A DNA stretch of 63,687 nucleotides, filler included, from Folioceros fuciformis (GCA_049999805.1; 4 parts of 4 records of this genome joined end to end with filler, not necessarily neighbours in it); one strand, 5' to 3'. Counted from the first letter of the whole stretch, positions 10,885 through 61,581 are shown. Program-made: numbers and translations. Notes: a model not told the origin generated them from the sequence alone.

Positions 10885-11268
10885 ATGCCTTCCCGTCGAC
10901 GAGGTCGCTATAACTCAGCAGGGACGCCTGCACAGGACCGGCAAACGGATCAACCCAATTTTCATGGGATACAGCCAGAAATTTCTGAACCGGAAATTGG
11001 AAGGTCAGGGGCTGTTGTGGATAATGATCACCTACTCTGGCGCATCAACAATCTACAGGGTCAGTTGATCCAAATGTTTACCGTTCAGAATTCATGGGTG
11101 ATAGAGAGACTTGATCAGATTAGTGAGCACTTGGTTCAGATTAGTGAGCGCAGGAAATTTGAGCAGGTGGATTTTCCATTACCTATGTCGGTGGCATCAC
11201 CAGCAATGGGATTGTATCTTCCCACCTTGTCTCCAATCCCTAGAAAACCGGACGCTCACAGTAGTTAG
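10885..11268 (+). CDS. ORF0 of C, 127 aa, Arg-rich N-terminus and coiled-coil-like segment, function unknown
   Basis: MPSRRRGRY...LLWRINNLQGQLIQMF...VIERLDQISEHLVQISE; lies between PBS and gag. Confidence 0.6.
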   Translation: MPSRRRGRYNSAGTPAQDRQTDQPNFHGIQPEISEPEIGRSGAVVDNDHLLWRINNLQGQLIQMFTVQNSWVIERLDQISEHLVQISERRKFEQVDFPLPMSVASPAMGLYLPTLSPIPRKPDAHSS

Positions 11269-11563
11269 GGTTTCGTGTGAACAGTTGCTTCACATGACTG
11301 GGGCATTTTTCAGTTAGGGTTTCTGTGCACATACCTTTTCATGTTGACGTTTTGCATGAACTTTGTCGTTTCCTGTGCCTCTCCCTTCAATGCCCTGTCC
11401 CTTCATGTTGTAGATGCCTTTTCAGATCTGCACATTTAGATAACACAGTTAGTCAACCATGCATGGATGATTGGTTACTGGATGACTTAGCAGAATCATT
11501 TTATAACCTTTTTTTAGTGGACTGATCCCTGCTGCTCCAGCCCAGAACCAAGGTCGACCCGGC

Positions 11564-14500
11564 ATGTCTAACATTAATCCTCCCCTTCCCCCTCCTCCAC
11601 CTCCGTCCTCTCTTTCACTTCCTGGTCCTCCTGGCCCTTACAACCCTGTCTTCACATCTGAACTCAAAGAAGAAGACAGGTTTAATGGTCAGAAGTACGA
11701 GGTGTGGAGAGTGCAGATGAAGTCGACATTGTTGGCTAGAGGAGTCTGGGGTATTAGAGATGGCTCTATTCCTGAGCCACCTGCAACTGCCATTCAAGCA
11801 GATAAGGATAAGTGGGCTCATGCAAACAGCATAGGTATAGCCCTTCTTGTTTCTGGCCTGACAGAGGATCTCATTCCTCCTATAGAATTTCTAACCAAGG
11901 CTAGTGAAATTTGGTCCCAGTTAGAGAGCCAGTACAAAGTCAGTAATGTCCTTACACTATGTGCATTACGCACAGAATTCTATGGACTTAAGATGCGAGA
12001 GGGTGACAAAGTTCTTGCTCACACCAGCAAACTTAGACATCTTCGAGCACAACTTACTTCCCTTGGTACAGTGATGGATGAGGTGGACGTGATTGCTCAG
12101 TTGCTCACCAGCCTGCCACCAAGTTACCAGACTTTTGTATCTGCTAACAATGTCCCCATCCGACAGGCTATAGCTGCCGGTGCTGCTGGGAGACAAATTA
12201 CTATTACCTTAGACGAGGTTATAGGTGCCCTCTTCCAGGAAGAGCAGAGCAGGCTCATGTCAGGGACTGGGAAAGCCAAAGCTGACAGAGTGCTTATTGC
12301 ATTCCGTGGCAGAGGGGCACATAAGGATAAAACAAAGATATAGAATTCACAACAAGGAAATAGAAACAAAGGGCAACGCAATCACGCAGGTCCTTCAACA
12401 AAACGTCCTGGAAGCTGCAATTGGTGTGGCAAACCTGGTCATTGGGCCAATGAATGCAGGAAGAAGAAGGCCGGGGAGCCTCGCAAGACTCCTCGTCCTT
12501 CTGCTAGTTCTGTTGTTCAAGATAGACCTGCAGATTCCAACAAACCGGTGGTTAAAATTCTAACCATCTGCCTGTCCACTCTCACAGGTGACAAGGCAGC
12601 CTGGTATTTGGACTCTGGGGCTACTGCCCATATATGTCGTGAGGAATCCCTCTTCACGACATTGACCCCCTCCTCTAGTGTAGACAGAGTCTACTTGGGA
12701 GATGAACGGAATAGCACTAGCCTACAAATTCTAGGACAGGAATCCTGCACATTTAGGCTAAGTGATGGGTCTACGCTTGCTCTTCCAGACGTCCTGTATG
12801 TTCCAAGCATGGCCAAGAATTTGCTGTCTCTCAGCAAACTTTTTCAGCTCAAGATTTTCCAACTAACAGCTCACGAGCATTACTGCTGTTTCTCTCAGAT
12901 AGACTCCCCTTCCATATGTGTCTTTAGGGCTCTGCCTGAGAATGACCTGTATCGTCTGGACTTCACCTGTCTTCCAGGAAGCAAACAAGAAGTCAACTCT
13001 ACAAGTGTAGGAACCCTTTCGGCTAAGCAGCAGTCTATTCTATGGCATGCTAGGCTTGGTCATCTAAATCGCAAGGTTCTGTCCTCCCTTAGTAAGAGTG
13101 ACTACTACAGAGAGCCCATTCCAACATGTTTGAAAGAGCTCCCTCTTTGTGAGACCTGTGCCCTGGCTAAGAAGAAGGAACAGCCATTTCCTACTGGACC
13201 AGCTCACAGAGCAACCACACCCCTGGAACTAGTACATGCTGATATTTCTGGTCGCCTCCAGGTTTCCTCACTTGGAGGGGCAGATTATTACTTCACCATC
13301 ACAGACGACTACACAAGGTACACCTGGACTTTCCCTATGAAAAGAAAGAACGACACTTTCCCCTTATTTCAATACTGGTTGACCACAGTGCAGCGCCAAA
13401 CAGGCTGTCTCCTTAAGATCTTCAGATCTGATAACGGGACAGAGTTTGTAAATCAGTCTTTCGAAGACCTCTTCACAGAACAGGGAATTGTACACCAGTT
13501 TATTGTTCCTTACACACAGCAATAAAATGGTGTTGCTGAACGTAAAAACCAAACACTAATGGGCATGACACGAGCAATGCTGCTTTGGTCTGGTCTCTCC
13601 TCACCTTATTGGGCAGAGGCTGTGGTTACCTCTACCTATATTTTAAACCGCTTACCAACCAGCTCTTTAGTCTCCAAGACACCTTTTGAGCTGCTTTGGC
13701 ATCGTAAACCGAGCCTTCTCCATCTCCGAATTTTTGGCTCTAAGGCCTTTGCCTATATTCCTGCAGACAAGAGGCGTAAGTTAGACAACCGCTCCAAACG
13801 TCTCATCTTCATGGGCTACAGCGAGACAGTCAAAGCATATAAACTTATTGACCCTGTTTCTCGACAACCAGTACTTGCCAGAAGTGTTACCTTTTTGGAA
13901 TCCCTTCAGGCTGCTCCTATTCGAGATGAAGCACTTGATCCTTTTGAACAGCCTGAAGATTCGGATGTCCTAGATTATGAGCTTCCCGGTGTCATTTCTC
14001 TGTACCCCATGGATGTGGACGGCGCGGCCCCTAATTCTGCTGCAGGTAATCCTGGACAGGTCCCTGCTCAGTCACCACAAAATCCAGGACCAGCTCCTGC
14101 CCAGCTTCACAACCCTGGCCAGATCCTTGCCCAACCACAACCAGTTGCTGCTGGTCCCCATTATGATCCTGATCATACAGAACAGGATCCTGAGCATGGT
14201 AACCCAGATTTTGATTTTTCTGCGGAAGATGGGGAAGATGACTTACCTCCTCCTCAGCTATCTGTAGATGTTGCCCCTGCTCCAGTTGACTCTGATGAGG
14301 CTGCTAGACCTCGACGTTCATCAAGGCATAAGCCTCCACCTTCTGAATGGCAGGAACCCCCTTATGCAAGCATTGACTTCAGATGCCCTACTATTTCATC
14401 AGTTTCCTCCCCTCCTGAAGTCCCTCCAGAACCCGTATCTCTTACGGAGGCACTTACTGGACTAGATAAAGACAAATGGAAATTCGCTGTTGATGACGAA

Positions 14501-15973
14501 TATAATAGCCTAATCAAAAATGGCACATGGCGTCTGGTTCCTAGGCCTGCAAACAGGAAAGCCATTACCTGCAAATGGGTCTTTAAACACAAGCTCAATG
14601 CAGAGGGGCATATTGCCCGATATAAAGCTAGGTTATGTGCACGAGGATTTACCCAAGTCGTTGGTTTGGATTACCAGGAGATGTTTTCTCCAGTTGTGCG
14701 TGCTCAAAGTATTCGCATCATCTTAGCCCTTGCTGCACAATATGACCTTGAATTACAGCAGATGGACGTCTGCACGGCCTTCCTCCATGGTCTTCTTGAA
14801 GAAGAACTGTATATGGAGCAGCCAGAGGGGTATGTAGACCCTGCACATCCTGACCACGTCTGCCAGTTAATCAAATGCCTGTATGGACTTAAACAAAGTG
14901 CAGAACGATGGTATAAAAGATGTGATACTGCCCTGAAGTCTCTTGGCTTCACACAGTGCAAAGCTGATTCAAATGTTTATATGTTTTGAGACGGATCTGC
15001 CTATGTTCTTCTTGCACTCTACGTGGATGATGTCATCCTTGCAGCCAGTAACCCTGCCATCCTGTCACATGTGAAGACACTCTTAAGAAATACCTTTGAC
15101 ATGACGGATAGTGGGGACCTTCTCTTCTGTCTCGGGATTCAAGTCCTGAGGGTTAGATCAGAAGGGCTGCTCATCATTCATCAATATAAGTACATAGCAG
15201 AAATTCTACATCGCTTCAACATGGGCCAGGCCCATCCAGCCACTACTCCTGGTGCTGTAGGCACAAAACTTACCAGACATGAGTCTCCTGTGACAGATGC
15301 TGATCAATAGGACATGGCTGATGTGCCTTATCGCCAGGCTGTTGGTAGCTTAATTTTCGTCAGTAATTGGACCCGGCCTGATGTTCAACACTTTGTTAGC
15401 ACAGTTTCTCAGTTCCTGGATAATCCAGGACGTGCCCACTGGACAGCAGTAAAACGGGTTTTCCGCTATCTTAAGGGCACACATTATCTTGGCTTGTGTT
15501 ATAAACATACTGACCAGCCTCACCTTGTGCTTGATGGGTACACGGATGCAAACTGGGCCTCGGACAGTGACTCCCGGAAGAGTCTTTCTACATATGTTTT
15601 CCTCTTGGCACAGGCTGCTATCACCTGGAGCTGTAAAAAACAGACAAGTATTGCCCTGTCAAGTACGGAAGCAGAATATAAGTCCTTGACGGATGCTACA
15701 AAAGAGGTGGAATGGGCACGATCGTTCTTACACGACCTTGGGCAGACTCAAACAGATCCTACTTACCTCTGCTGCGATAATCAATCTGCCATTGCTCTCG
15801 TCGCCAACCCACGCTTCCATGCTCGAACAAAACACATCGAAGTTCACCACCATTACGTCAGAGATGCTGCTGAGAGGGGCCTGGTTAAAATTCTCTATGT
15901 TCCTACTGAAGACAATACAGTAGACATTCTGACCAAGGCTTTATCCAAAGATAAGCATCAAAAACATCAAAAA
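11564..15973 (+). pseudogene. Element C gag-pol, single frame with four premature stops
   Basis: ORFs at 11564, 12548, 13559, 15023 and 15314 share one frame; motifs CNWCGKPGHW, YLDSGATAH, SDNGTEF, YVDD, ARTKHIEV. Confidence 0.95.
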
Positions 15974-16400
15974 CTGGGAACGAGATACCTTGAGCTGAGA
16001 GCTGCCTGAAAATGGTATTGAACTCATTTAGATGATCGGACATCCTTGTCCCTTCCTTCATCTTTAAGTCCACCAGCTGTTTCAACTAGTACACCTAAGA
16101 AGCCGCACTTTGCTTCTCATACAGGTCACACAACTTCTGCCATAGCTCGTAACTTGTGGTCTTGTCTTTCACATTGAAGTAGATCAACTTCAACAATGTT
16201 AGCATGATGGTAGACCTAGCAAGCTCATCTAGATCCTGCCATTCATCATGAGTCATGCTAACAAGTTTCACTCCCAGCAGCTTGATGGGCTTGATTTGCT
16301 TCTTCTGTACTAGAACATTTTACACTTGTTCTTTCCAGAACGGTAAGTTAGTACCATCTAACTTCTCGATATTGAACGTGACGTTTTATGAGGACGTCAT
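15974..16400 (-). pseudogene. Element B gag N-terminal part
   Basis: NIEKLDGTNLPFWKEQV...LVDLKMKEGTRMSDHLNEFN...QGISFP; continues as TMRAMFLL at 10306. Confidence 0.88.
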
Positions 16401-17331: not shown

Positions 17332-17601
17332 TGAAGGATCGCTACGGGAGCAATATGGTGAAGGAGGAGAGGAGAAAGAGAGGTCACACTGTCACGATGT
17401 CTTAATAGCAAGGGAGCTCAAGGGGGTATTTATACCCACTAAAAGAGCTCCCTACAAAGCTTCACAAGAAGCACACAAAAAGCTGCGCAAGAAGCTTCCT
17501 ACAGATTAGCTTAAGCTAATCTAAACTAATGATACTTTAGTAGACACTAATCTTAGACTAAACCCATTAGCCTAAGCACATTGGGCTTTATTAACCCTAC
17601 A
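17332..17601 (-). repeat. 5' LTR of element B
   Basis: Homologous to 6389-6665; preceded on + by GCTCTGATATTAGT (degenerate reverse-complement PBS). Confidence 0.92.
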
Positions 17602-18544
17602 GATTGGTTCTTGGCTTTGGAGACAACAGTTGAATTAATAGTCTTAGGCTCCTGCTTTGCCTCATTGGCTTGCTTCTTCCAACACTCTCATTCCCAGTGG
17701 CCAGGTGTTTGACACCAATTACATGTCCCTTGATGTTTGGGGGGCTTGGAACTTGAAGAGGAAGGAGGAGCAAGCTTGGAAGGACCAGAGTGTGATGCCC
17801 TCCAAGGGTTGCTCCCTCTCTTCTATTGCTGATGTTGAGACCGTCCACAAGTCACAAACATCACACACTCTCCACCATGTTTGGACATGCCATAGTTGTA
17901 GTGGGAGGCCTCCTCCTATAGAAGGGCACTCCCAAGCTCTAACACTATTAAGGTGGATTGACCACCAACCACAACTTGTTGAGATGTCCGGATAGTCTGG
18001 TTTTGAGAAGAGATGAACAACTGATAACTAGCTGGAAGGCTAGGTAGAAGCTGGACAGCAGGATCAAACTCATACATAGTAGTCCCAAGTGCAGCCAGTT
18101 GTGCTCGGAGGTACCAAAATTGACTGACATGATGAGCAATGAGATCTCCTGGTTGCATCCGAAGAGTGTAGAACTCTTAACGGACAATGACCAAGGTCAT
18201 GACATTTGTTGATTGATAAATGTCATTGATTTGCTTCCAGGCTTCAGCAGTAGTTAAGCCGCCGTCGGTATGGAGAGTGTTTTCGTCAAGACTTGATACT
18301 AGCATATGCATTGCTTGATGATCTAACTTCATCTAGGCATTGATAGCCGACAGGGGATTGGTTGGTTTAGGGAGAGTTCCCTTCACCTAAGGAAGAAGAT
18401 TACGTGTATTTAAAGCTGTCTTCATCCTTCTAGACCAAATCTCTTACTTCGTGCCATCAAATCTATCCTTTTTTTTAAAGTCTATGGAGACATTCATTAT
18501 ATTAATTACATGTGCCATAGTAGGAGAGAGTGCTTGTTCCTAAA

Positions 18545-18579
<35 letters not shown>
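18545..18579. repeat. (ATT)n microsatellite in the ORF0-gag spacer of A
   Basis: About 11 perfect units. Confidence 0.95.
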
Positions 18580-18755: not shown

Positions 18756-19073
18756 TTAGCTACCAAAAGTTGACTCAATTCTGCAAATAGTTTCAACAAC
18801 ATTTACAAGGCTAGTGTTGATGTCGGTAATTGAGTGCCAAAGAGATTGGTAGTGTTGGGAATGTTGCACAAAAGTAGAAGCTTGGACTTGGGCTTCATGA
18901 AACTTGAACTCCTTGAAGGTTGCTTCCAATTTCTCAATAAGTGGAGGAGGTGATTTCGGTTCCTCCTTAAATGCCACAAATGAGAATGCTGATGACGTCC
19001 TTGGGTTGAAGTTGTGAGAGGGAGGAACATATCTCATTGCTAGAATCCGCTAAGGTCATGGAAGACGTCTACC
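18756..19073 (-). pseudogene. ORF0 relic of element A
   Basis: GRRLP*P*RILAMRYVPP...LIEKLEATFKEF...SLWHSITDINTSLVNVVETICRIE, 237 bp upstream of gag. Confidence 0.55.
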
Positions 19074-20143
19074 AATATCAACGCCTTTGTTTGCTGGAGA
19101 AATATTAGAAAAAATGGTGATCAGGAGGGCAAATTGAAAATATATCTAGACCCCTATTTGGCATAATAGGGGTCACACCCATCCGTTGATCCGGCACGGG
19201 TGGCACCCCATTACAGGCCACCTCGGTGTGAAGGGGTGCCTACGACGGGGGCTCTACTTCATGGATAGTCGTCCAACGCCGCTTCTTGAGGAAGCATGTC
19301 CGGATGGGCAGGTGTGTCATTGAGGACGTGCTCTACGCCTCTAGCTTGCTCAACTCCTCCAGCAAAACCAACGCCTCCCACAGAATCCACTCCTCCATCG
19401 AGTGCCACGCCTCCTGCTCACACATTGACCTTTGGATACTTCCTTGTTGCGCACCTGTGGGCACCGTTCCCAACCTTTGCACCTAACCTTGCTGCAAGTA
19501 GAGATTGCCGAGATGAGGATCCCTCCCAAGGGAAATGGAAGCTGGGTATTGTGTCGCCGCTGATGCTTGGTGGGGTAGAGTGCCCAATCCGTTGAGATTG
19601 TTTCTTAAATTGGGAGATTATTGTAAGAATTAGATCGGCATCGTTGCCCTCTCCTTCAAGATTTCTAGAAGAATTGGAGATGCCTAACTGATTTTCTTCA
19701 TGAGATGTGTTGGAAATGTGATGGTTTCATATTTGCGGCCTGAATCTTAAGGAAGTGGGCACAATTTCTCTTGGAAAACCCGATCGCCAATAATGTTTTG
19801 CAATCTCCTTTGTTGGTGGCTCTTGGGGTTAGATGATTGTTGATCATAACCTGTTAATAATAAGGGTTATTTTAGTATAACCTACCTTAGGGTTAATTAA
19901 CCATAGTTATGAAAAGACACTTTGTATATAATACCTTATTTTTTGGTTGAGTTTAATTAATTGTCATTTTATGCAACTTGTGCACTAGCATCTTTTCTTC
20001 TAGCATGGTATCAGAGCCCATGCATTTTTTATCTAGTAGTCCTATGGCTAATTGTAGAAGAAGATTGTCTCTACTTCTATTGTCTAGCATAGAGTGCTAC
20101 TTAGAGTGTTAAAATGCATTTATGCTAGTGAATTTTGTGCAGG

Positions 20144-20599
20144 ATGACGAGGAGAAGGGGAAGCTATTGTTCTTCTAGCTTCAAGCCTTCACAAGGCCAA
20201 AGATTGCAGAGAGAGCAGCAATCCCCACTACAGTCACCTACATTCTACTCTACAAACCCACAGTTTCACTGTGCTAGGGGTAGTAGGTGCCCACCTCCTC
20301 GCTTGCATCCTGCACAACACAATTCCCACAGAATTGCTGCTGAGAGGGTCAATTCAGGTGCTGGAGATATTCAGAGGCGTCTTCTCCAACAAATGAACAA
20401 CAGGCTGGTTTGGCTTGATGAAGTACCTGAAAGAATTAAGGCTTTGGAGGATCGTTTGGATTTTTTGCTGTTAATTTTGCAAGATGTTTCTGCAACAATT
20501 AATAGATTGTATGAATTTCAAATTGCACCTGCACAGTCTACTTCTAATCAGTCCAATTTTGCTAATTTTCAAGCAAATTTGGGTCATCAATCTAGTTGA
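20144..20599 (+). CDS. ORF0 of D, 151 aa, Arg-rich N-terminus and coiled-coil-like segment
   Basis: MTRRRGSY...RRLLQQMNNRLVWLDEVPERIKALEDRLDFLLLILQDVSATINRLYEF. Confidence 0.65.
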   Translation: MTRRRGSYCSSSFKPSQGQRLQREQQSPLQSPTFYSTNPQFHCARGSRCPPPRLHPAQHNSHRIAAERVNSGAGDIQRRLLQQMNNRLVWLDEVPERIKALEDRLDFLLLILQDVSATINRLYEFQIAPAQSTSNQSNFANFQANLGHQSS

Positions 20600-20864
20600 T
20601 ACCTTCAGATAGCAAAAGCCACAGCCTATCCTGAAAGGTTGTGATGAAAGGGTGCCTGCAAAAAGCACCAGCAACTGCCAAAGTTAGTTCCTTTTGATTG
20701 GTTGGCAGTTAGGGTTTTGGCCTTTAATTTAATTTAATTCTATTTTAATTAAATTAGGGTAGCTTTTCACATTGAATGGGTCTTTTGCTTACCTCACATG
20801 CCTCTTCATGTGTTTGTAGTGCTAGGCCTCTTCATATCTGCTCCTTTTTCCACTTTGTCTGCAC

Positions 20865-22108
20865 ATGTCTGCTTTAGATCAGCTTATTTCACAATTTGCT
20901 GCTTTTAGCTTACTTGGTGGGTCAGCAAACATGTCTTCTGCTACAACTTCTGCATTCTCTGGTGACTTCAAAGAAAAGGACCGCTTTGATGGCAAGCCAC
21001 AGCGATTTGAGAGTTGGCGTGCCAGAATGAAGGCCCTTCTTGATGCACGTGATGTTCTGGAATTTGTGGATGGCACCTTTGAACAACCTGGCCCTGCAGC
21101 ACAACAAACTGAAATTGATAAATGGAAAAAGGGTAACAAATTGGCATTTGCTATGCTACTTTCAGGCCTTGATGAGGCCACAGTTTTGGAGGTGGAGTTT
21201 CTACCAACTGCAGCAGATGTCTGGACACAACTACATGATACATATCAAGTAAGGAATATATTGACTCTTGTTGCTGCTAGGAATGAATTCTATGGACTAA
21301 GAATGAAGGAGGGAGATACAATGAGTGCTCACATTACCCGCTTCCGCTACTTGAGACAACAAATTGTTCAGCTTGGTGGAACTGTATTTGATATAGACAC
21401 AGTTGCACAATTGTTGTCTAGTCTTCCTTCCTCCTATCAAAACTTTGTGTCCACACAGAATGTAGCCTTGCGCACCTCTGTTGCCGCAGTTAAAGCAGGT
21501 GGTGCTGCCACCCTCACTTTCAATGAGCTAGTGGGAGCTCTCCATCAAGAGGAGCAGACTCGCCATCGGCCTTCTGGTTCTACAAAGGTTAGAACAGAGA
21601 AATTGTTAGTTGCAATGAAGAAGCCTTTTGGGAAGGGAAAGGGTAAGGGTATGAAAACCCCACCTGGAAATCCCAAAAGGCAAGGCAACTGTAATTGGTG
21701 TCAGCTCCCTGGCCACTGGGAAAGAGAGTGCCGTAAGAAGAAATCAGGAGAAGCTCACAAGGAGCCAAAACTTGAAGCTCATGTTGCTGAAAGAGGCAAC
21801 AAATCTTCTAGTACCCAAAGTGCTCAAAAGAGCAGCTCAACAGTGTTGACTGTCTGCTTGACTTCAACAAGAGAGCATCCCTCTCTTTGGTTCATTGACT
21901 CAGGGGCGACCTCACATGTGTGTAACAATCGCCACCTGTTCACTACCTTCATTAGACAGTCATTCCCACAGTCAGTGTATGTGGGAGATTCACGTGCTGT
22001 GAAGGTACTAGGAAGTGGAACAGTAAGTGTACCTATCTCTAGTGAATTCACTCTTGAATTGCTGGATGTACTTTATGTTCCTGACATGTCAAAGAACCTG
22101 TTGTCAAT
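20865..22108 (+). CDS. Element D gag and protease, open up to the gap
   Basis: FKEKDRFDG, CNWCQLPGHWEREC, LTVCL...WFIDSGATSH. Confidence 0.92.
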
Positions 22109-22208
22109 NNNNNNNNNNNNNNNNNNNNNNNNNNNNNNNNNNNNNNNNNNNNTTAATTAATTAANNNNNNNNNNNNNNNNNNNNNNNNNNNNNNNNNNNN
22201 NNNNNNNN
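22109..22208. other. Artificial contig linker N44-TTAATTAATTAA-N44
   Basis: Six-frame stop linker, the same at three sites. Confidence 0.95.
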
Positions 22209-35300: not shown

Positions 35301-36977
35301 TCTTGGCCATTGATAACAGCTTTCGTTCATGTGGGTGACCACAGCGTGGATGCCAAAGCATGGCAGTCTCACTAGGGGAGAGACCTGTAGATACACCAGC
35401 AACATGTAATATGGGCAAGCGACTCCCAACTACACTCAGCTGGTAAATATCGTTGATTGGATACCCTTCAGCCAACACCTCATCTGGTTGTGCACCATTG
35501 GTGATTGTACATTTCTCTCCACGGAAATTAACTTGCATGCCAGTATCTGAAGTAAGCCTACGAACAGATAACAAATTCTTCGTCACTGCCGGGACATGAA
35601 GGACGTTCAACAGCTCCAATTTCCTCCCATGATGCAGCTGCAAGGTAACCTTCCCTGTCCCTGCAATTGGAAGAGTGCTGTCATCTCCAAGGAGTACTGA
35701 CTGTACATCTTGATAATGCTGGTAATCACAAAACTGTGCACGATCATGGCAGATGTGCGCCGATGCACCCAAGTCTATGAACCAAGCAGGAGTGTGAGGG
35801 CCAGATGTTGTAAGACACACAGTGAATATGACCTGTGTCGGCTTCTTCCTAGAAGCTTGCACAGCATGTGCTTCCGGAGAGCCAGCACTCTCCTTTCTCG
35901 GCTCACCAGCTTGTCGCTTGCGACAATCTCGAGCCCAGTGGCCAGGTATGCCACACCAGTTACAATTTCCAGACTTTTTCTGATTACTTGAGGCTTGACC
36001 AGGTCCACTGAAATTGGACCTCCCGCCCCTGCTTGCACTCCAGCCTCCTCGTCCTCTTCTGTAGGGCTTGCCCCTACCAGCAAAGAGGGCTTGCTGGCCC
36101 TGCACTTGCTGTTTCCCAGAGCGAGAGGACAGCCGAGTTGCTTCCTCTTGAAGCATAGCCCCCACCACACCGTTAAATGTAAGGGGTTCAGCGTCAATCT
36201 TCAAAGCCTTTGAGAGACGAGCTTCGACCTTCGCCATGGCTTGCTGGCCGGTGACAAAGGGCTCGTAGCTCGGAGGAAGTGAATTCAACAATCTGCAACT
36301 GGCATCATAGTCGGTAATCTTCGTTCCTGTAGAACTTAGCTTGGCTCGGGCAATGCGAAAACGTGCAACATAGTGCTCCACTGTCTCACCCTCTTGCATT
36401 CTAAGAGAGTGGTATTTTGCTGATCAGCCATGGAAGCCGCCATATCGTGGGATGCAAACATCGTTGCCAGGTGCGTCCACATGTCCATGGCAGAGTCCCC
36501 AGGCCCATCGGAGGCTTGCCTCATCATCTCTGGAGACAAACCTGATCTAATCAGGTTCTTTGCTCGGATGTCAGCCAAATGCCAAACCGGCATGTCTGCG
36601 GAGGTTACTTCAGGTTTGAGAGTCTCCCCATTCACCATGTGCCACAAATTCTTTTCTTCAAGTGCGCCTTGCATGCGCATCGCCCATATATCGTATTCGC
36701 TTCCAGTAACAAGGCGGTCCTTTTCCTTAAACCCGCCACTGGTAAGAGATTGAAGTGCCTGGAGCACATCCTCCCTCGCTTTGTTGTCTAAATCACCCAT
36801 TCTTCTACTTGGATCTGACCAGTTGGTAGCTACTGACGCTCGTGCTGAATCAACATCCGTGCCCCCCGCAGACCTAGTGTCTGTGTTTAAATCTTCGTCA
36901 TCAAGGTCTATCAGACCAGCTTCACTTGCAAGATGCTGCAGCCAGGTGGGCGTCCCGTACAGCCCTTCTTCACTCAT
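32317..36977 (-). pseudogene. Element F gag-pol with a few stops and frameshifts
   Basis: ORFs 36336-36977, 34981-36399 (CNWCGIPGHWARDC, HSDICGP), 33982-34755, 32317-33888 (LYVDDL, RNase H). Confidence 0.95.
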
Positions 36978-37019: not shown

Positions 37020-37511
37020 CTATGTGCAAATATTGTGATTTTGTTGGGTAGCAAGTGACTCTAAGATTTTGGTTTGTTCCTGGATTTGCGGTTTTGCAAG
37101 AATGAACAACTTAGCATCTACTTGCTGCAGGTGGGAGTCAAGTCTAGTGATCTGGTCAGTAAGACTATCTAAGGTTGACAAGATGTGTTGGGTGCGACAA
37201 AGTGCAGTGCCGTTTATGTTATCCAGATGCTGGGTAAGGTGCTGCATAGAGACAGTGAGAGACTCTTCCCTCTCCCTTGTCAAAGACTCAACATGACGAC
37301 ACGCTGATTCTCTACGACTGTTCGCTAGAGACCTGCAGTAAGCATGAATGCTCGGATTGGGAGTGGCAAGGTGTGGAATTCTCTCAAGAAAGTTGTGCAG
37401 CCTACTGACGTGCTGTCCCCTTGGCGAAGGGATGTTTGTGACTTCGTAAGGTGGGACTGTATGGAAAACTCTTCGCTGGTTTCCACGGCTGTGCCTCTGG
37501 CGTGGTGCCAT
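37020..37511 (-). CDS. ORF0 of F, 163 aa, intact
   Basis: MAPRQRHSRGNQRRVFHTVPP...ILSTLDSLTDQITRLDSHLQQVDAKLFIL; ends 42 bp before the gag ATG. Confidence 0.7.
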   Translation of the reverse strand: MAPRQRHSRGNQRRVFHTVPPYEVTNIPSPRGQHVSRLHNFLERIPHLATPNPSIHAYCRSLANSRRESACRHVESLTREREESLTVSMQHLTQHLDNINGTALCRTQHILSTLDSLTDQITRLDSHLQQVDAKLFILAKPQIQEQTKILESLATQQNHNICT

Positions 37512-37715
37512 CTTCAAGCACCAGACTGGTTTTTGTTTGACATTTGTGCAGGCGCAACTGCGCACGCCTTCCTCTCCGCTATTCTGAGGTTAGCGACGTC
37601 ATCAGAAAGTCTGCTGATCGACATAAGGTGCGTGAACAACTGCTGATCATTGATTCACAGGTCTCACCGGGATCTAGGGGCAAAATCTTGACCCTCTTCT
37701 TGTGCTCTGATACCA

Positions 37716-49951: not shown

Positions 49952-50674
49952 AGTTAGAATATAAGGCAGACCACGTGGTTCTGTATCACGTTGGTTAGTC
50001 TAACTAGACCTAGTTATAAGTGCAGTTAGTTAACTGGCAGGCTAGTTATAGGACGCACCCCTTCGTAAACCGCTATTTAAGGCCTACCTTTGTATCCACC
50101 TATTTAGTTGCTATTAGATCATCTTTTATGCATCTGCTTCCACATTAGCAATTCTAACTTGGTATCAGAGCTACGGCTCACATGGTTACTGATCATGGCT
50201 AGAAAGATGCTGTTGAGTTTGCGCAAGAACTCTGGGGAGATCTGCGTAAGATGGGGAGATCTCTGGATCTCTTAGGATGTTTAATAGAAAGTTGCTTCTA
50301 ATTAAATCTGCAAATCAACAGGTTTAGATTAGAGTAGCAAGCTTCTCTATACATTCTACTTTCAGAATAGAACGTTCTGATATAAAAATCCACGAAAATG
50401 ATACCGTTGATCGGTCCCCCACCTCAATATTGATCCTACCCCTAGGCACTCAACTTCAGAGTTTTGATGTGGAGCGGGTTACTTACCCGACTCATACCTC
50501 AGCACGTTATACATCTGGTTTGGTATAAAGATATGAAAAGGCAAACGTCGTAAATATGACTTTAATTTTCGCGGAAAGGCTCGCGGCCTCTCCCTCTTTG
50601 CGCTTCGTTCACATGCGCGACGCGAGACAATTGTCGCGGGGGCAATTCTTCTCAATCTCTCCAATTAGATCACC

Positions 50675-51697
50675 ATGGCAAGAACTCGCAAGAGATCTCG
50701 ACATCCAGGCTCATGGTCTCAAAGGCAAACTGGGCCTCAATCTAACGATAAAACTGGGCCTCAATCTCAATCTGCAAGGGATCAGGTATCCGGACGATGT
50801 CCAATCTTCGGAATTCTGAATCCTCCCAGGGAATTGCAGGCCCTGTCTTCTTCTGATCAGATTGCAATTTGGCTCTCTGCCCATGGCTGGCTACATGGAA
50901 TCCAGGCGTATGTACCTCTCTCAAATTCGCTTGAGATTGCTGCTTCTAGGCCTGAGATTGCCCAGAATTGCCCTTGCTTCAGTCCAGATTGCACACACAG
51001 GAATCCCAGATTGTTTGCTCTTCAGGTAGGAGCTCGCCAAGCGGATCTGGCAGCAGGGGGAGCACAATCCTTTCCCAACCACAATTCTTTGTAGGAGGTG
51101 CAGGTTCAGGGAGAGGCCTCCCACATCGCCGCAGCGCGTGAGGATGCCCTCGCAGTGCGCGGAACGGCACGGGGGTCTGAACCGGTGCCCCCGCCCAGTA
51201 GTTACGGATCGGTTCATTATGAACTGGTGCCCGTGACCGGGTGTGCACCGGTTCATAACCGAACCGGCGGTTCAGGCCCGGACCTGACCTATCCCTCCCC
51301 GGATCTAACTAATCCTTATTTTTCTAAGAATTCTGGTTTTCAGGACTTTACTGGTGGCCTTTCTACACATAATACAGCCTCTCAACAATTGATCTCCGCG
51401 CCTGTTGGACCAGCTCTTGTGAAAATCGAATCGGACTCTTCGCCACCTCCACATCGCAGATTGGCCATTCGAGTTGTTCCTCCCAAGCGCTCTCTGGCAG
51501 AAGTTTATGCTTCGTGTGGTGATCCTCTTGGATCCACTGCTCCTCCGGCTCGGCGGGATAGACTTCTGGCTCTCTGGCAATCGGTGGCCAACGCCAACGA
51601 AGACCTTCTTAACTTGGCAACCCAAATTCAAGAATTTCAAGGGCTTGACCTAAGTTCCGAGAGTGCTGAAGTCACCGAGCCCTCCTCCTCTCCCTAG
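50675..51697 (+). pseudogene. ORF0 of K, 340 codons with one internal TAG (51092-51094)
   Basis: ORFs 50675-51094 and 51098-51697 are in the same frame; MARTRKRSRH...RRLAIRVVPP...RLLALWQSVANANEDLLNLATQIQEF. Confidence 0.65.
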
Positions 51698-51855: not shown

Positions 51856-53374
51856 ATGTCAGGCGCTTCCAGCTCTGGGTCAGGGTTAGGTACTGGTGAC
51901 GGGTTCTACGGGTCTCCACTTCGGCAAGGCTCCAGACCCCCGTCACCACCCATGGGTGGGCCCCCGATTATCCCACCATCTTCACCTTCGGGTGGGCCGT
52001 TGGGTAACCCACCACCCCCACCTCTCGGTGGCCCAGCCGGCCCACTGCCGCCTCTACCCACTGTAGGACCTCAACCTTACTTCAACATCGTTAATATCAA
52101 TATTGACTTTAAGGAAAAGGATAGATTTAACGGTACGAAGTTTGAGGTGTGGTCTAAGCGCATGAAGACTGCCTTAAACACCCGGGACCTTCTTCCAATT
52201 GTGGAAGGAACCATCCCCAAGCCCATTGGTAATCCGATTGCCCTTGATGCTTGGATTCGTCAAGATCGCCAGGCCATGTAGATGTTGATCTCTGGTCTTG
52301 ACGAGGTTACCTTACATCACACTGATGGTGCGTCCACGTCAGCTGAAGCTTGGAAGCAAATCACTGATATCTATCGGTCCACTAACGTGATGATGTTGGT
52401 CACTGTACGCTTAGAGTTTTATTCTTTGCATATGGGCCCTAATGACAGCGTTGCTCAACAAGTTAGTAAGTTTCGATATTTGCGAGCCCAGCTTGCTGCT
52501 CTAGGGACCACCATCACAGAATTTGAAGCTGCTGTTCAGTTATTGGCTAGCCTCCCTGCTAGCTACCAGACCTTTGTCTCCTCACAAAATCAGATGGTGA
52601 GAAATGCACATCAGGCTGTGCAGTTGGGTATGGTACCCAACATCACCGTGTCCGAGATCGCTGGAGCCCTCCTTCAAGAGGAGGCTGCCACGTTCAACGT
52701 TGGGACTTCAAAACATGGAGGAGACCGGGTTATGTTCGTCGCCAAAGGACGTCAACAACAGCGTAAGAATTCTACTAAACCTAAAAACAGGAACACTTCC
52801 CAAGGTTCCGACAAGCCTGCTTCCTCACCTGGCTCTTCTACCAAGACTCCCAAGCGACAAGGCCCGTGCAATTGGTGCCAAACGCTAGGTCACTGGGAGC
52901 GGGAGTGCAGGAAGAAGCAAGCTGGTGAGGCCAAGCGAGAGCACCGTACGGCCAACTCGGCTACTGTCTCGACTAAGGCCAAGAATCCTTCTCAACCTGG
53001 AATTGCTCTCACTGTTTGTCTTGTGGCATTTGAGCACAGTCAGTCATGGCTGATTGATTCTGCTGCGTCTGCGCACATCTGTAGTCACAAGACCATGTTC
53101 ACGACGTATGAGGCGGCTGCTAACATTCAGCGCTTCGTTCTTCTCGGAGATGACTCTGGTCTTTCCATTGCGGGGATTGGCTCCGTCGCCTTCACTCTGG
53201 CTGACAGCTCCCTCATGGTGCTTTCTCATGTTTTACATGTTCCCCAAATGACCAAGAACCTCATCTTTGTTCGACAACTTGTCAAGGACGGCTCCTTTCG
53301 CCTCGAGTTTGGTTTTGGCGATTGTCTTCTATATCGGTCATCTAACCCTCGTGTGGTTGTTGCTAGAGGTCGTC
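51856..53374 (+). pseudogene. Element K gag-protease with one stop at 52279
   Basis: IDFKEKDRFNG, CNWCQTLGHWEREC, LTVCL...WLIDSAASAH. Confidence 0.92.
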
Positions 53375-53474: not shown

Positions 53475-56109
53475 GAGGAAACATGACTGAAGAAACCTCA
53501 CTGGAAGATTCATCCAACTCATCAATCAAGGGAACAGCATCACCACAAACAGAGGCAGACTTACAAGAAGTAATCTCCCTAAACTACGAGCTAGTGTTGA
53601 GCTATGTGTCTGAGGGTCAAATAGCTTGTAGGCCTTGGATTCGTCTGAGTAGCCAAGAAAAACTAAGGGCTTGGACCTATGATCTAATTTCCCCCTTTTG
53701 GCTTCAGGAATGAATGCAAAGGGCTGGAGACCCAAAGACCCAAAGATGAAGAAGACTTGGCTTGCCACCCCAAAACGCCTCATAAGGTGTACGTCCTAGA
53801 AGAGCAGCTGTGACAACTCTATTCAAAATATAAGTGGCAGCAACTACAGCTTCAGCCCAAAAGGACTTTGGAAGACCTTCCCAAGCCAACATACTTCTGG
53901 TCATACCCATTAAGGTTTGATTCTTTNNNNNNNNNNCATAGGAATCCATGTGGAAATATGATCAAAGGCATCACTCTTCAGCTTTAGAGGAAAAGTCCAC
54001 GTATAGCGAGAAAAATCATCCGTGAGAGATAAGTAATACTCAGACCCACCAAGAGATTTAACTGGAAGTCTTCCTGCAAGATCTGCATGTATCAACTCAA
54101 GGACTGCTCTGGCTCTTGTAGCCATCTGATTTTTAAAGGGAAGTTCCTTTTGTTTAGATAATATACAAGCACTGCAGGGTGCAAGGTGCTTGAAACAGGA
54201 AGGCAACTTCTCACGATAGCAGCTGGAGTGAGATATCATATTGAGTTTAGACTGGTTGACATGACCCAAGCGTGTATGCCACAGCTTAGCCCGAAGAGGA
54301 TTAGAAGCCACCAATGATTGAACACTATAGGGAGAAGAGGTATCCAACTGATACAAATCATTCTGCAAAATAGCTTTAGCAACATAGTTCCCTGGATCCT
54401 TTTATTCTGTAAAGAAAACAATGGTTGTGCTCAAAGCTAAATCCATATTGTCTAGCAAAGGTAACTGCTCTAACAGAGAGCAAATTTTTACTCATAGACG
54501 GTACATACAACACATCAAAGAGCTGCAAGGAAGTCCCATCCAACAGTGGTATGTTAGCCTGACCACTTCCTTCAACCTCAAGTCCTCTAAAGTCACCAAC
54601 ATAAATAGTATGAAAAGGTGTCTGATAGCTGAACATAGAAAATAGATTCCTGTTATTGCATATGTGCGAAGTGAACCCGGAGTCCACAAACCAAATGGAG
54701 GAATTCTCCTTACTTGAGGTGAGACAAACAGTTAGAACAGAACTGCTACTCTTGTGCTGCTGAAATCTTGAAGGTGCTCCCTTGGTACTAACCTGAGCCA
54801 CATGGCGAGCCTCCTTCTTTGGTTCACCTGCCTTTTTCTTCCTACAATCACGTTCCCAATGCCCTAGGATTTGACACCAATTGCAGGTGCCCCGTCGCTT
54901 CACAACAGGAGAGGAAGATTGACCATGTGAGAATCCCTCCTTTTTGTTTTTATTGCTGCGTCCTGGACCTTTTCCTTTTGAAACGTAAAGCACCTTCTCT
55001 CCTCGGAGGCGAGACGAAGGCCCTGACTTCTGGTGGCTCTGTTCCTCTTGCAGGAGAGCCCCAATCAAGTCATTCAACATTATAAGAGAAGGTTAACCAG
55101 CACTCATAGCTTGATAAGAAGCTTGAATGGAGGTGTTCTGGCTTGACACAAAGTTCTGATAAGAAATTGATAAGCTGGAAAGCAGTTGAGCAACTGCATC
55201 CACTTCAGTCATAATGCATCCAAGAGCAGCTAGCTGAGATTGCAGATGGCAAAACTTCACAATATGTGGTCCCACTGGATCTCCATCTTGCAATTTCATG
55301 CCATAGAATTCATTTCTTGCATGTACAAGTGTAAGAATATTCTGGACCTGGTAAGTGTCCTTCAATTGTGTCCAAACTTCCACTGCAGGTGGTAAGGACT
55401 CAACTTCAATCACTGTTGTCTCATCCAGGACTGAGAGTAGAATAGCAAAGGCTATTTTATTTCCCTTCTTCCACTTATCAACCATGTCTTGTGTAACTCT
55501 TGGATCAGTGGGATCAAGCTTGGGAAGTGATCCATCAACATACTCCCACACATCCCTAGCGTCCAAGAAGGCTCGCATCCGAGCACGCCAGCTTTCGAAT
55601 TGGGAGGATTTCCCATCAAACCTATCCTTTTCTTTAAATTCACTTGAATAAGTTGCTCCAAGAGAAGTCAAGGCACCATTGGCTGATGTCATGTTGAAGG
55701 GAATAGGAGCAGCTGGTTAAGAAATAGGAGGACTAGAAATTGATCTAGCGAGCTCTTGTAGTGTCAAAGCAATTTGGGTATTTAACCTAATTTGTTCTTC
55801 AACTTCAGAATCAGAAGTGGCATATTTGTTGGCAAAATCAAACTCAACTAAATCTTCTAATTGACTACTAGAAGAGTGGGCAGACATGCACAAAGATGAA
55901 GAGCTTAAAAACAGAAACCAAAAGAAATTTAAATTAAGGTTTCCTCCATTTTTTAATTTTAACTAAATACCGGTTTGAAATACCTTGAAAATTCAAAGAC
56001 ACCAAAGCCGAGACACGAAAGGGCACAACTCAAGAGAGGGAGACGCGTCACGGGAGGCAGACACGCGCGTGTGGCAGCGCCACGAGAGCTCAAGGCTGAG
56101 TCTCGATCA
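53475..56109 (-). mobile_element. Copia element J fragment (gag, PR, IN), close relative of D; leader interrupted by H
   Basis: FKEKDRFDGKSSQFESWRARM, CNWCQILGHWERDC, WFVDSG, HADLAG. Confidence 0.9.
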
Positions 56110-56699
56110 TGTTGAAATAGCACCACTAGCTTAGATGGACTCCACACTGCATTCCTTATGGTGCATAGAATGCTACATATATAGCCTTCAGGCGGGGCAA
56201 CCCTCGATAAGGTAAGCCTTAGTCTCGAGGGTGCAATATCCTGGTATATCGTGATATATCCTGATAACACTTAGGTGGTAGATAACTACGAGTTCAATAT
56301 GGGATAATCTACATTGTCCTAAGTGTTGTATGCTCTTAATAACAATTCAGTTAGAGCTTGATTTCTAACACTCCCCCTCAAGCTCAGACTATTTGCAACA
56401 CTCCAAGCAGTTCACAAAAGTGTAAGTACTTATCTCTACCTAGCAACTTAGTAAAGATATCTGCTACCTGGTCTTTGAGCAACAGCGCTTTCACGCGAAC
56501 ACACACTTCTATTGATAGAATGAATCCATTACATAGGAAGGCGGTTGGCCGTTGGATAACTAACTCGCTAAATAAATCATTTCACATTTCTAACGGCTAA
56601 GAAATACATAAAGCATCAACTGCTTTCACACTCCCTCTATTTCTGCTATTAGCTAACTAGTTTAATTTAGAATATAGCTTGTGCTTCGAATCTTCGAGT

Positions 56700-59600: not shown

Positions 59601-61081
59601 GAGTTCATGCAGCTTTCTGGCCGATGGATGTCCCAGTCGTTTGTGCCAGAGTTCTGTAAGAGACTCGTCTTGTTGAGACACACATATTGCATTCCGATCG
59701 GCCCTGATTGATCGGGCATCCAACATAATCAGTCCATGATCTGGGGTGCCTGACATCAGCGGTGAGCCTGGCTGTGTCTTCAAACTCACTGTGGTAATAT
59801 CATCCTCAAGTACAATTTTGTACAGCTTCAATTTCGTTAAGCTGAGTGTAGACATGAGGTTTTTGGTCAATGCAGGTACATACATAACTGGGTACAATTG
59901 TATAGTCGCCCCAGTTATAAGCTTTAGCGTAACCTTGCCTTGTCCTAGGATTGGACAAAGACGGTCATCGCCCAGAGCTACTTGTCGCGGAGGATCAAAG
60001 GGTTCAAGGTCTCCAATTACTGTTATATCGAAGCAGAAGTGATTCGACTCTCCAGAATCGAGATAGCAAAGTGAACCGTCCAACTCCGTTGACAAGGTGC
60101 ATGTAGCGATGAAGCAACCTGCTGATAACGTCTGTTGATTTTGAGTGGACTTATTTGTGGATATACCACGTTTTTTATCGTCAAATATCTTCTTAGGACA
60201 TTCTTTCCAAAAGTGCCCCGGCTTTTTGCAGTATGAGCACTTGAATCCTCGTTTGTTGAAATTTGGATTACTTGAACAGACTGTTGGTTTTCCTTGTTCT
60301 GCTGCCAAGGTTTCCTACCCTTCTGAAGCCGGCCTCTCGTAAACAAGGCACCTCCTCCCTCAGAGGTATTATTTACTCCAGTTAACTTCTTTGTATTCTC
60401 ATGTTGATACATGGCTGAGATAACCATCGTTACCATTAAATTTGCTCTGCCTTGTTGTGAGGTGATGAACACAGACCAAGAGGCTGGTAGGGAGGAAAGT
60501 AATATAACAGCAGCGTTTTCCTCAGTTACATTTGTCCCCAAGGTGGCTAGCTTGGAGCGATTCACCCTGAACTGAGTCACATGCTTCTCGACCGTATCTG
60601 CATCTGTCATTTTGAGCTGGTAAAAGTTTTGAGTTGCCATTACCAGCGATATAGTGTCTTTTGATGCATAGCTGTCCTGGATTTGATCCCAGGCCTCCTT
60701 CGCCGTGGTTGTACTGAGCATAAGATGCATGGTTTCGGATGACAGGGCTTGCATGAGAATTGTTCTAGCTTTTCGTTCATCCTTATCCCAGGCCGTAATG
60801 TCCCGGGTTTCAACTGCTGTGGGATGTGCAGGATCTGCGGGGACTAGTCTGGCCGTTTGACCTGTGACATGTCCCCAAATCTCTTTATCTTCTAATATAG
60901 ATTTGAGCCTTGCAGCCCAAATTTCGAAGTCTTTCCCTGAGAACCTGTCCTTTTCTTTAAAATCGAAGGTTGTGTAGTTGTTATTGACCGTCGCCATTCC
61001 TCTTCTCCTTGGTATTCTAATAGTATGCCTAGGAGGTGTAGGTGGAAGAGGCGGTGGAGTCGGGGGCACGCTCATGCCCAT
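56700..61081 (-). pseudogene. Element I gag-pol, disrupted; 3' boundary approximate
   Basis: ORFs 60023-61081 (DFKEKDRFSG), 59082-60308 (CSYCKKPGHFWKEC, SDNGGEY), 57163-58782 (LYVDDT). Confidence 0.93.
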
Positions 61082-61581
61082 CTACAATCTTAGACTTATG
61101 TCATGATCAGCTGAGGTAGGTGCACGCGTCTCCGACTCTGGCTTGTGATCTGATTCCGAACAGGCTCGTGTGCGGGATTCTGACAGCTTCGATAGCTGTG
61201 ATAACAGAGTGTTAATCTGTTCCAGAGATTTGCAGAAGGTGTTTCTTACGACGTCCACAGCATCAACTAAGTCCTCGAGTTGAAGACAGAGGGCTCCGTG
61301 ATGCCTGCCTTCATGAATTGCCTCGGACCTAGTCAGGTATGTCAATTCTAGCAACCGATCCACCTTGACCTCGAGATCTTGGATTGCCTGCTGATCTATA
61401 GAGCTTTCCCTTGCATGACCAGAAGGACAACGCGCTCTGTATTCAGAAAGCGCCTGTGCAGCTGCTGCCGGCTCTGGGTACGGCTGAACTCTTCAGCCCG
61501 TGTGAGCCAATCAAGATCGTAAGTTCTTGGAGTTCTTCGTGATCTATGACTTCGAGTCCAGCTAAACGCGTCGTGTGACAT
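61082..61581 (-). pseudogene. ORF0 of I, about 165 aa with one frameshift near 61397
   Basis: MSHDAFSWTRSHRSRRTPR...GKAL then DQQAIQDLEVKVDRLLEL...SLEQINTLLSQLSKL; its stop abuts the gag ATG. Confidence 0.6.

Follow-up and report, generated by a model that had tools for sequence, protein, structure and literature searches.

The copia elements are regarded as uniform in structure. In the accessible text of Neumann et al. 2019 (PMC6317226), the features named as differentiating them are the PBS type and extra ORFs, with no others, and the 3' ORF of SIRE (eORF-3'F, present in 74% of SIRE elements) is the sole extra ORF called characteristic of a copia lineage. LTR elements with extra ORFs as such are already known, and a 5' extra gene is unusual for copia. 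We will use the term ORF0 to define the 5' ORF described here. Ogre ORF1 ('eORF-5'F', Tat clade of Ty3/gypsy) resembles ORF0 in that it, too, is a sense ORF of a plant LTR retrotransposon located after the 5' LTR/PBS and before gag, and also in having, in the accessible part of the same survey, no assigned function and sequences that are highly divergent between families (PMC6317226). On the other hand, Ogre is a Ty3/gypsy element with RT before INT and an added RNase H, while the ORF0 elements are copia with INT before RT. Ogre ORF1 often contains a plant mobile domain, whereas ORF0 has no Pfam domain, and it is much longer (1527 bp in Medicago Mtr70, for example, in the accessible part of PMC2533021) than the 127–341 codons of ORF0. 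The env-like ORF of SIRE/Sirevirus is, like ORF0, a copia extra ORF, and evolves too fast for similarity between family groups (PMC6317226, accessible text), but it is located 3' of pol and not 5' of gag. The ORF0 of the rice Ty3/gypsy element Retrosat2 shares with the copia ORF0 the state of an orphan with no assignable function; as described in the accessible part of PMC3485330, Retrosat2 is a gypsy element with LTRs of more than 3.2 kb, and its ORF0 is unrelated to the copia one in position, detail, and sequence context. In the accessible text of Neumann et al. 2019, extra ORFs were scored only from 250 codons (PMC6317226), and therefore ORFs of the size of ORF0 would be missed. Within the searchable literature a 5' ORF0 in copia is apparently new, and the supplementary tables of that survey may list 5' extra ORFs of copia.

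The window, meaning the whole stretch of DNA that was analysed, is 63,687 nt of Folioceros fuciformis (GCA_049999805.1), in which parts of four records are joined with filler. It contains seven Ty1/copia insertions (C, D, F, K, I, A, and J) which are nested and belong to a single gag clade, and in which a sense ORF0 lies between a tRNA-iMet PBS and gag. The first-pass annotation had claimed such an ORF in the first six; a sense ORF upstream of a copia gag, recognised by PF14223 or tblastn, is present in all six intervals, and J is an additional, seventh case. We consider it probable, at roughly 60%, that ORF0 encodes a fast-evolving accessory protein, the first cistron of the element, which is maintained by selection and would probably be nucleic-acid-binding and oligomeric. 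A LINE with zf-RVT has also been seen and, together with the PBS type, makes it probable that the host belongs to the green plants but not to the well-sampled angiosperms.

Intact ATG-to-stop copies of ORF0 are found in C, D, and F. In C (+ strand), the PBS (10514..10525, with one mismatch to TGGTATCAGAGC) is followed by an ORF0 of 127 aa (10885..11268) which starts MPSRRRGRY and has a heptad helix at approximately residues 55–89, by a T-rich spacer of 295 nt with two AGTTAGGGTTT motifs (11269..11563), and by the gag start (11564..12343; PF14223, DUF4219), with pol pieces extending to 16009. The arrangement in D (+) is similar, with the PBS at 20006..20017, an ORF0 of 151 aa starting MTRRRGSY (20144..20599), a T-rich spacer of 265 nt with one CAGTTAGGGTTT motif (20600..20864), and an ORF for gag and Pol_BBD (20865..22160). 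In F (−), the PBS (37704..37715) adjoins the 5' LTR (37716-37911), ORF0 has 163 aa and starts MAPRQRHSRGNQRR (37020..37511), and the gag start is at 36336..36977.

The remaining copies are damaged or truncated. The ORF0 of K (+; PBS 50160..50171), starting MARTRKRSRH, spans 341 codon positions including the terminal stop (50675..51697); the frame does span the interval that had been annotated as an ORF, but an in-frame TAG at 51092-51094 divides it into 139 and 200 codons. The gag start of K (51856..52281) resumes at 52282 past an in-frame stop. In I (−), the PBS (61670..61681) adjoins the 5' LTR (61682-61839), and the earlier description of 61082-61581 as one ORF was wrong, that reading having five stops. 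ORF0 is really in two frames with a single frameshift between them, the first part being 61 codons from the ATG at 61581 (MSHDAFSWTRSHRSRRTPR; 61399..61581) and the second 136 codons (61492-61085) with a heptad helix and then a TAG (61082..61492). The gag ORF of I is located at 60023..61081. The last two copies are 5'-truncated. A (−), whose 5' end is lost, retains a remnant with a heptad helix, and the proposed interval of 18756-19073 holds in so far as an ORF of 93 aa runs from the ATG at 19037 (18756..19037); stops lie just 5' of this ATG and the start is not Arg-rich. Its gag remnant (17799..18506) is frameshifted and nearest to the K gag. In J (−), a nested LTR at 56107 cuts the 5' part, leaving 81 codons (55962-55720) and a TAA (55717..55962) ahead of the gag ORF (55093..55692).

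The class of these elements is clear from their domains. In C, D, F, and I, ORF0 is followed by the copia order of PF14223 gag, Pol_BBD, gag_pre-integrase, rve, SH3_retrovirus, and RVT_2, with no separate model match for RNase H. The first gag ORF of K has only weak matches to DUF4219 and Retrotran_gag_3, and the K gag was identified by tblastn, as was that of A. The tRNA-iMet type PBS TGGTATCAGAGC has six matches compared with 0.45 expected, five of them at the 5' ends of the ORF0 elements C, D, F, K, and I, and one at that of G, which is another kind of copia element. The PBS is directly inside the 5' LTR in both elements with LTR pairs, namely F (196 nt, 98% identical, 37716-37911 and 31776-31971) and I (155–158 nt, 95% identical, 61682-61839 and 56476-56633); for C, D, and K, the window yielded no LTR pair. 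Membership of Ogre/Tat has been rejected on the copia domain order and the lack of a Pfam domain in ORF0. Downstream of the final pol ORF and ahead of the 3' LTR, no ORF of at least 90 aa is present in either of the two intervals, 32317 to 31971 of F and 57163 to 56633 of I, and membership of the SIRE lineage, with its 3' extra ORF, has been rejected on this ground.

No cross-match exists between the LTRs of F and those of I, and identity to the D gag is 26–60% across the clade, and because of this the families are distinct, as had been proposed. ORF0 is supported as a maintained feature of the whole clade and not of a single family. The clade itself has no close relative in the databases searched: the D gag has no match at E<=1e-10 among longer proteins, and the RT ORF of I is 30–44% identical among the best 120 of 3660 matches.

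The ORF0s are far more divergent than the gags. The closest gag pairs are D and J (58–60% identical) and A and K (60–69% in the main tblastx blocks), while the leaders of these pairs have no DNA-level alignment and their ORF0s are faintly similar at most, in colinear order; for the A ORF0, the similarity is to the C-terminal part of the K ORF0, in two short blocks. Among the ORF0s, tblastn gives no cross-matches, alignment identity is 13–22%, and C and D reach 24% over 110 aa (E=0.013). The mutual homology of the ORF0s is deduced from their position and architecture. These comparisons support a much faster turnover of ORF0 than of gag, in agreement with the earlier suggestion of a fast-evolving protein. 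Searches for relatives were negative, with no match to the F ORF0 in a word-indexed search, none to the D ORF0 among 1.84 billion representatives at E<=0.001, a best score of 0.77 in the ESM Atlas, which is under the lead level, only noise for eight ORF0 segments against Pfam at E<=10, and a best E>=0.98 against PDB sequences, so that the conservation of ORF0 is documented from this one window.

Despite this divergence, the ORF0s are built alike, with an N-terminus that is basic, rich in Arg, and disordered, and then one long α-helix with a heptad pattern. The Arg-rich N-terminus is present in C, D, F, K, and I, as first described, and is encoded by CGN codons in C, by AGR codons in D, and by a mixture in F, K, and I. 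The helix had been claimed at the C-terminus of all of the first six copies. In shuffle tests, the C-terminal heptad pattern is found at p<=0.003 in five of nine segments (D, F, A, and the C-terminal segments of K and I, that of K being close to the C-terminus) and with higher p values in C (0.033) and J (0.12), while it is absent from the N-terminal segments of K and I. AF2 single-sequence models agree with the heptad test and the Arg-rich starts on a basic tail and a long helix. In D, residues 1–59 are modelled as disordered and residues 60–127 as a helix with block pLDDT up to 98, and in F the helix spans residues 68–162 (pLDDT 78–97) after a disordered N-terminus.

The coding character of ORF0 has been assessed by codon usage, with stops excluded, by comparing eight segments with other frames and with shuffles. 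The ORF0 frame has the top score in 8/8 segments and is above the shuffle mean in 8/8 (Fisher 4e-5); the signal is weak in single segments (p>0.05 in five of eight, 0.30 for F). There are two disruptions in ~2.9 kb of ORF0 (C, D, F, K, and I) and, judging by the ORF pieces, at least 11 breaks in the ~17.3 kb of gag-pol belonging to C, D, F, and I. The decay of ORF0 after insertion proceeds at the rate of gag-pol, and since the breaks per kb are about equal, ORF0 was open at insertion. Contigs from DNA runs cover the C ORF0 (10896-11574) with five differences and no gap, the four differences listed within ORF0 being three synonymous changes and one Tyr-to-Cys. The D contig (19976-21032) has one gap whose location is not listed and which could fall in ORF0. 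No RNA contigs were found on ORF0, and no RNA run is listed for the sequence.

At the sequence level, ORF0 and gag are separate cistrons, with one or more stop codons of its own ending ORF0 before gag. The two are 0–295 nt apart across the clade. In C, D, and K they are in different frames, 158–295 nt apart, and in F four in-frame stops lie within the 42 nt preceding the gag ATG. In I the ORF0 TAG abuts the gag ATG (TAGATG), and in J the TAA is 24 nt ahead of it; in both, ORF0 is in frame with gag with this single stop between. A separate start, opening with a similar 'MS' and then a Pro-rich stretch, is present in every gag. The ORF0 ATG is preceded by 1–10 upstream ATGs in 5/5 complete leaders and the stretch from ORF0 to gag contains further ATGs, therefore simple scanning would translate both poorly. 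By eye, donor- and acceptor-like sites are seen in the T-rich spacers of C and D.

This junction lends itself to another reading, in which ORF0 is a long regulatory uORF whose translation, rather than its peptide, sets the flow of ribosomes to gag-pol or protects the RNA, and only its openness is selected. A sequence nearly free to vary, a position right ahead of gag, the ORF0 stop of three elements (I, J, and F) touching the gag ATG or lying close to it, and the many other ATGs in the leaders are all in its favour. It leaves unexplained the Arg-rich N-terminus written in differing codons, the recurring C-terminal heptad helix, and the coding-like codon usage, and usual uORFs are far shorter than 127–341 codons. 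For these reasons, we regard it as improbable, albeit the best of the alternatives.

Somewhat less probable still is that Gag has ORF0 as its N-terminal portion, joined to it by stop readthrough, frameshifting, or splicing, or as a single ORF in active master copies. The single in-frame stop of I and J and the splice-like sites in the spacers of C and D would suit such an extension, but the candidate introns fall 3' of the ORF0 stop and would not fuse the frames. The four stops of F, the differing frames and distances of C, D, and K, and the separate start of every gag also argue against it.

The longest sense ATG-ORF of each leader has been compared with 2000 dinucleotide shuffles, giving p = 0.0145 for C, 0.0005 for D, 0.002 for F, and 0.044 for K (Fisher 1.2e-6 combined) and 0.267 for the frameshifted I, while B (p = 0.198) and G (0.74), whose leaders served as controls from two further copia lineages of the window, gave no significant result. 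That the ORFs are a noncoding product of chance leader composition or of RNA-level constraint (packaging or dimerisation structure) is equally doubtful, since the combined shuffle result with its negative controls, the preference for the ORF0 frame in all eight segments, and the recurrence of a two-part protein architecture where the leaders no longer align stand against the modest values of K and C, the failure of I, the lack of homologues and expression evidence, and the origin of all cases in a single window.

As an accessory protein encoded by a first cistron, ORF0 would be placed in an element with the layout 5' LTR, PBS (tRNA-iMet), ORF0, spacer of 0–295 nt, gag-pol, and 3' LTR. Its product may be a small, self-associating protein that binds nucleic acid, and the target may be the RNA or particle of the element itself, for packaging, chaperoning, or nuclear targeting; an RNA chaperone, a targeting factor, and a silencing suppressor had been proposed at first as examples. 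Gag-pol would then be reached by a non-scanning route. Where the ORF0 stop touches the gag ATG or is close to it (I, J, and F), this would likely be termination-reinitiation, while for C, D, K, and A the T-rich spacer would likely contain an internal entry site or a promoter, or undergo splicing. A bolder and rather unlikely version is a bicistronic copia clade with its own basic coiled-coil RNA-binding gene before gag, either similar to LINE-1 ORF1p or a pararetroviral virion-associated protein (VAP) or a Rev-type Arg-rich adaptor moving unspliced genomic RNA, with gag-pol translated by termination-reinitiation or through an internal signal in a conserved T-rich, telo-box-bearing spacer. In this version, the 'complex' genome plan would have been invented convergently in the structurally most uniform LTR superfamily.

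Two known systems would be analogous to ORF0 in design. LINE-1 ORF1p is the product of the first cistron of the bicistronic L1 RNA and has a disordered N-terminus and a long coiled coil, and the second cistron, which encodes the enzymes, comes after a short spacer, access to it being unconventional. ORF0 shares with ORF1p the first-cistron position, the disordered N-terminus, the long coil or helix, and probably such a mode of access to the second cistron, but it lacks an RRM or C-terminal domain and the class of element differs. Membership of the ORF1p family has been rejected, as none of the eight segments has a Pfam match to the RRM/CTD or Transposase_22 at E<=10. The pararetroviral VAP (CaMV P3, the badnavirus/RTBV ORF2 product) is a protein of ~12–15 kDa encoded directly upstream of the capsid region, whose coiled coil is N-terminal and whose basic, nucleic-acid-binding part is C-terminal. 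It is like ORF0 in its small size, its place before the capsid gene, and its coil and basic end, but the two parts come in the opposite order, ORF0 having a basic N-terminus and a C-terminal helix, and the virus family differs. Caulimoviridae VAP membership has been rejected on this reversed order and the absence of a Pfam match at E<=10. If the reading of ORF0 as an accessory gene is true, a small, clade-wide 5' cistron would mean that copia accessory genes have been under-counted through length thresholds. The clade would, in addition, serve as a compact model for two-cistron expression from a retrotransposon RNA in a plant-like host, and one for an orphan protein which keeps its architecture of basic tail and long helix despite complete turnover of its sequence. 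If the ORF0 protein binds the RNA or particle of the element, it would represent a third independent 'basic plus coiled-coil' design before a capsid or enzyme gene, after LINE-1 and the pararetroviruses.

The window is built of nested LTR retrotransposons; no cellular genes were recognised in its 63.7 kb, and Rfam and tRNA scans of the whole window gave no match. The word TGGTATCAGAGC occurs six times against 0.45 expected, as the primer-binding site (PBS) of six copia elements, and is presumably complementary to the 3' end of the plant initiator tRNA-Met. PMC6317226 agrees with this assignment. The Pfam gene order is that of copia, with gag (PF14223, DUF4219), Pol_BBD, pre-integrase, rve, SH3-like, and RVT_2 domains. 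A tblastn search with the gag proteins identifies one gag clade with seven copies in the window, at 11564 (+) in element C, 18506 (-) in A, 20865 (+) in D, 36758 (-) in F, 52066 (+) in K, 55695 (-) in J, and 61081 (-) in I. Also picked up by the same search are E, which is a degraded copy, and elements of two further copia lineages, termed G and B. The elements are nested, with C lying within B (B LTRs at 6436-6665 and 17360-17601) and I within a second G-family copy.

Several features of the surrounding elements were recorded. The second G copy (56108-56475 and 61837-63687), which the insertion of I splits, is 93-94% identical to 40231-42444. Element B also includes 15874-17828, and the B leader (the stretch from PBS to gag) is ~1 kb long and GC-rich (63%). 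The word depth of the B contig reaches ~30,000 in sequencing run X1, compared with ~10 for an exact-match contig elsewhere, so that B looks like a very abundant family, depth not being equal to copy number. The detected LTRs of F (31776-31971 and 37716-37911, ~196 nt, 98% identical; they may be longer, one copy being flanked by a run of Ns) and of I (56476-56633 and 61682-61839, ~155 nt, 95% identical) are very short for copia. An ORF with a zf-RVT domain, of the LINE-type reverse transcriptase kind, at 28047-28682 (-) adjoins E (gag remnant at 27182-27619). A 394-bp repeat at 4538-4931 and 23288-23681 (97% identical), the second copy of which lies within the D pol region, probably represents a solo LTR or some small element of the non-autonomous kind.

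In every element of the gag clade, a sense reading frame, here termed ORF0, lies between the PBS and gag. The first-pass annotation had listed six insertions with such an ORF; all six were borne out, and J adds a seventh. The 127-aa ORF0 of C, the 151-aa ORF0 of D, and the 163-aa ORF0 of F are intact, and that of K spans 341 codons with a single in-frame TAG. The interval annotated for I does hold the ORF but not in a single frame, as five stops fall in the frame concerned; instead, an ATG-started piece of 61 codons is followed by one of 136 codons in a different frame, indicating one frameshift. A retains a 93-aa remnant, while J has 81 codons left before a nested LTR cuts the frame.

The ORF0 proteins have a common architecture. 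Their starts are Arg-rich (MPSRRRGR, MTRRRGS, MAPRQRHSRG, MARTRKRSRH, ...TRSHRSRRTPR), and the Arg codons there are CGN in C, AGR in D, and mixed elsewhere. The heptad-like C-terminal helices claimed earlier hold up against shuffles in D, F, A, and the C-terminal segments of K and I (p ≤ 0.003), and the pattern is weaker in C (p = 0.033) and in the truncated J (p = 0.12). The same test found no heptad pattern in the N-terminal segments of K and I. AlphaFold2 models made without an alignment place a helix at residues 60-127 of D ORF0 (block pLDDT up to 98) after a disordered stretch at 1-59, and a helix at 68-162 of F ORF0 (pLDDT 78-97). The N-terminal model of the F protein is mostly of low confidence, with 1-29 disordered and two short weak helices within 30-61. 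The predicted complex of two copies of D ORF0 residues 55-151 gave a score of 0.04 and a mark of 0.32, values that speak neither for nor against self-association.

Chance has been considered as a source of these frames by comparing the longest sense ATG-ORF of each leader with 2000 dinucleotide shuffles. The leader ORF is exceptional in C (p = 0.0145), D (0.0005), F (0.002), and K (0.044), with a combined p of 1.2e-6 for these four, and that of the frameshifted I is not (p = 0.267). The leaders of the other copia lineages, B (p = 0.198) and G (p = 0.74), served as negative controls. The G leader has a purine-rich, Arg-coding stretch adjoining a 100-N gap, and the ORF there is not significant. 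By codon usage, trained on the gag-pol ORFs of the window with stop codons excluded, the ORF0 frame is the best in 8/8 segments and scores above the chance-open-frame mean in all of them (Fisher 4e-5), with p < 0.05 individually in only 3/8.

ORF0 carries two disruptions in ~2.9 kb, and gag-pol at least 11 in ~17.3 kb, counted from ORF pieces. The similar rates per kb imply that ORF0 and gag-pol were equally open at the time these copies inserted. Identity with the D gag runs at 60, 44, 37-42, 31, and 26%, and the families of the clade are old relative to one another; in the closest pairs, DNA similarity begins only inside gag and not in the leader. At such deep divergence, a frame of 130-340 codons is not expected to survive in a neutral leader. 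The decay rate, the depth of divergence, and the conservation of architecture rather than sequence support the maintenance of ORF0.

Contigs of two DNA runs cover the C ORF0 gap-free with five differences; among the differences listed, four lie inside the ORF, three of them synonymous. These contigs most likely derive from this very locus or from nearly identical copies, with little bearing on selection. A contig spanning D ORF0 and gag contains a single gap that could fall within ORF0. Run X4 (DNA of the same sample; window 10400-22100) shows C>T at 643 positions and G>A at 624, versus 5-61 of any other kind, which is the pattern of bisulfite conversion. The PBS of element C has one mismatch, an A at 10520, where the contigs of runs X1, X2, and X4 all read C and give a perfect 12-mer. 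Several further places in this element also differ from all contigs, and these differences suggest another haplotype or near-identical copies. From run X5, presumed to be RNA, nine contigs were placed on the window and none over an ORF0, which speaks neither for nor against expression.

By its arrangement, ORF0 is a cistron separate from gag. Fusion of the two is ruled out by frames and stops for F, which has four in-frame stops within the 42 nt upstream of the gag ATG, and for C, D, and K, in which ORF0 and gag lie in different frames across spacers of 295, 265, and 158 nt. In I, the ORF0 stop abuts the gag start (TAGATG), and in J 24 nt separate the two. Every gag has its own start and a similar beginning (MS...), followed by a Pro-rich stretch in C, I, J, and K. 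There are 1-10 ATGs ahead of the ORF0 ATG, and neither ORF0 nor gag is well placed for scanning ribosomes. Leaky scanning is ruled out because ATGs are not depleted from the ORF0 start to the gag start (4-16). Poor placement for scanning, together with the spacer features, points to other routes: gag would be reached by termination-reinitiation in the short-spacer elements, and by an internal entry site, a promoter, or a splice in those with long spacers. The C and D spacers are T-rich and share the blocks CTTCATGT and GCCTYTTCAKATCTGC. The telo-box-like motif (C)AGTTAGGGTTT occurs in sense twice in C (11263-11273, overlapping the ORF0 stop, and 11311-11322) and once in the D spacer (20706-20717), and TAGGGTTT is present nine times across the window (1.84 expected). 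The motif or the common blocks may be an internal cis-acting element for the expression of gag-pol.

Among the ORF0s themselves, C and D share 24% identity across 110 aa (E = 0.013), A and K share two short colinear blocks, and all other pairs are unalignable. A word-indexed search with F ORF0 and a full HMMER search of 1.84 billion representatives with D ORF0 each gave no matches, the best ESM Atlas score for D ORF0 was 0.77, below a lead, and comparison with Pfam (E ≤ 10) and PDB sequences gave only noise. D gag (residues 1-290) gave nothing at E ≤ 1e-10 against longer proteins, and the RT ORF of I has at most 44% identity among the matches listed. Gag-profile scans gave 458 pattern matches in metagenome contigs and 131 in viral contigs, none confirmed; the locus scan used a three-sequence gag alignment, the seven-sequence one being too diverged. 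The gag clade itself is unrepresented in the databases searched, and this want of outside relatives is the chief weakness of the case. The first-pass proposal of a conserved, fast-evolving accessory protein stands as the best-supported reading, with a probability of about 0.6; the function, oligomeric state, and expression attached to it remain inferred.

Full-text literature searches and passages from PMC7264820, PMC2774666, PMC9033089, and a 2024 Arabidopsis preprint turned up no copia element described with an ORF on the 5' side, though supplementary tables might list some. PMC6317226 counts extra ORFs only at ≥250 codons, describes copia elements as highly similar in structure, and gives the 3' ORF of SIRE as the only extra ORF characteristic of a copia lineage. 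Forward extra ORFs on the 5' side typify the Ogre group of gypsy elements (PMC2533021, PMC6317226). The clade elements have the features that define copia. They part from SIRE, whose extra ORF is 3', since F and I have none there, and from Ogre, whose domain order is different. The closest designs to that of ORF0 are LINE-1 ORF1p and the virion-associated protein of pararetroviruses, a likeness of layout and not of sequence, the latter protein having its two parts in reverse order. The ORF0-bearing copia clade is a case of LTR retrotransposons with extra ORFs, a kind already known.
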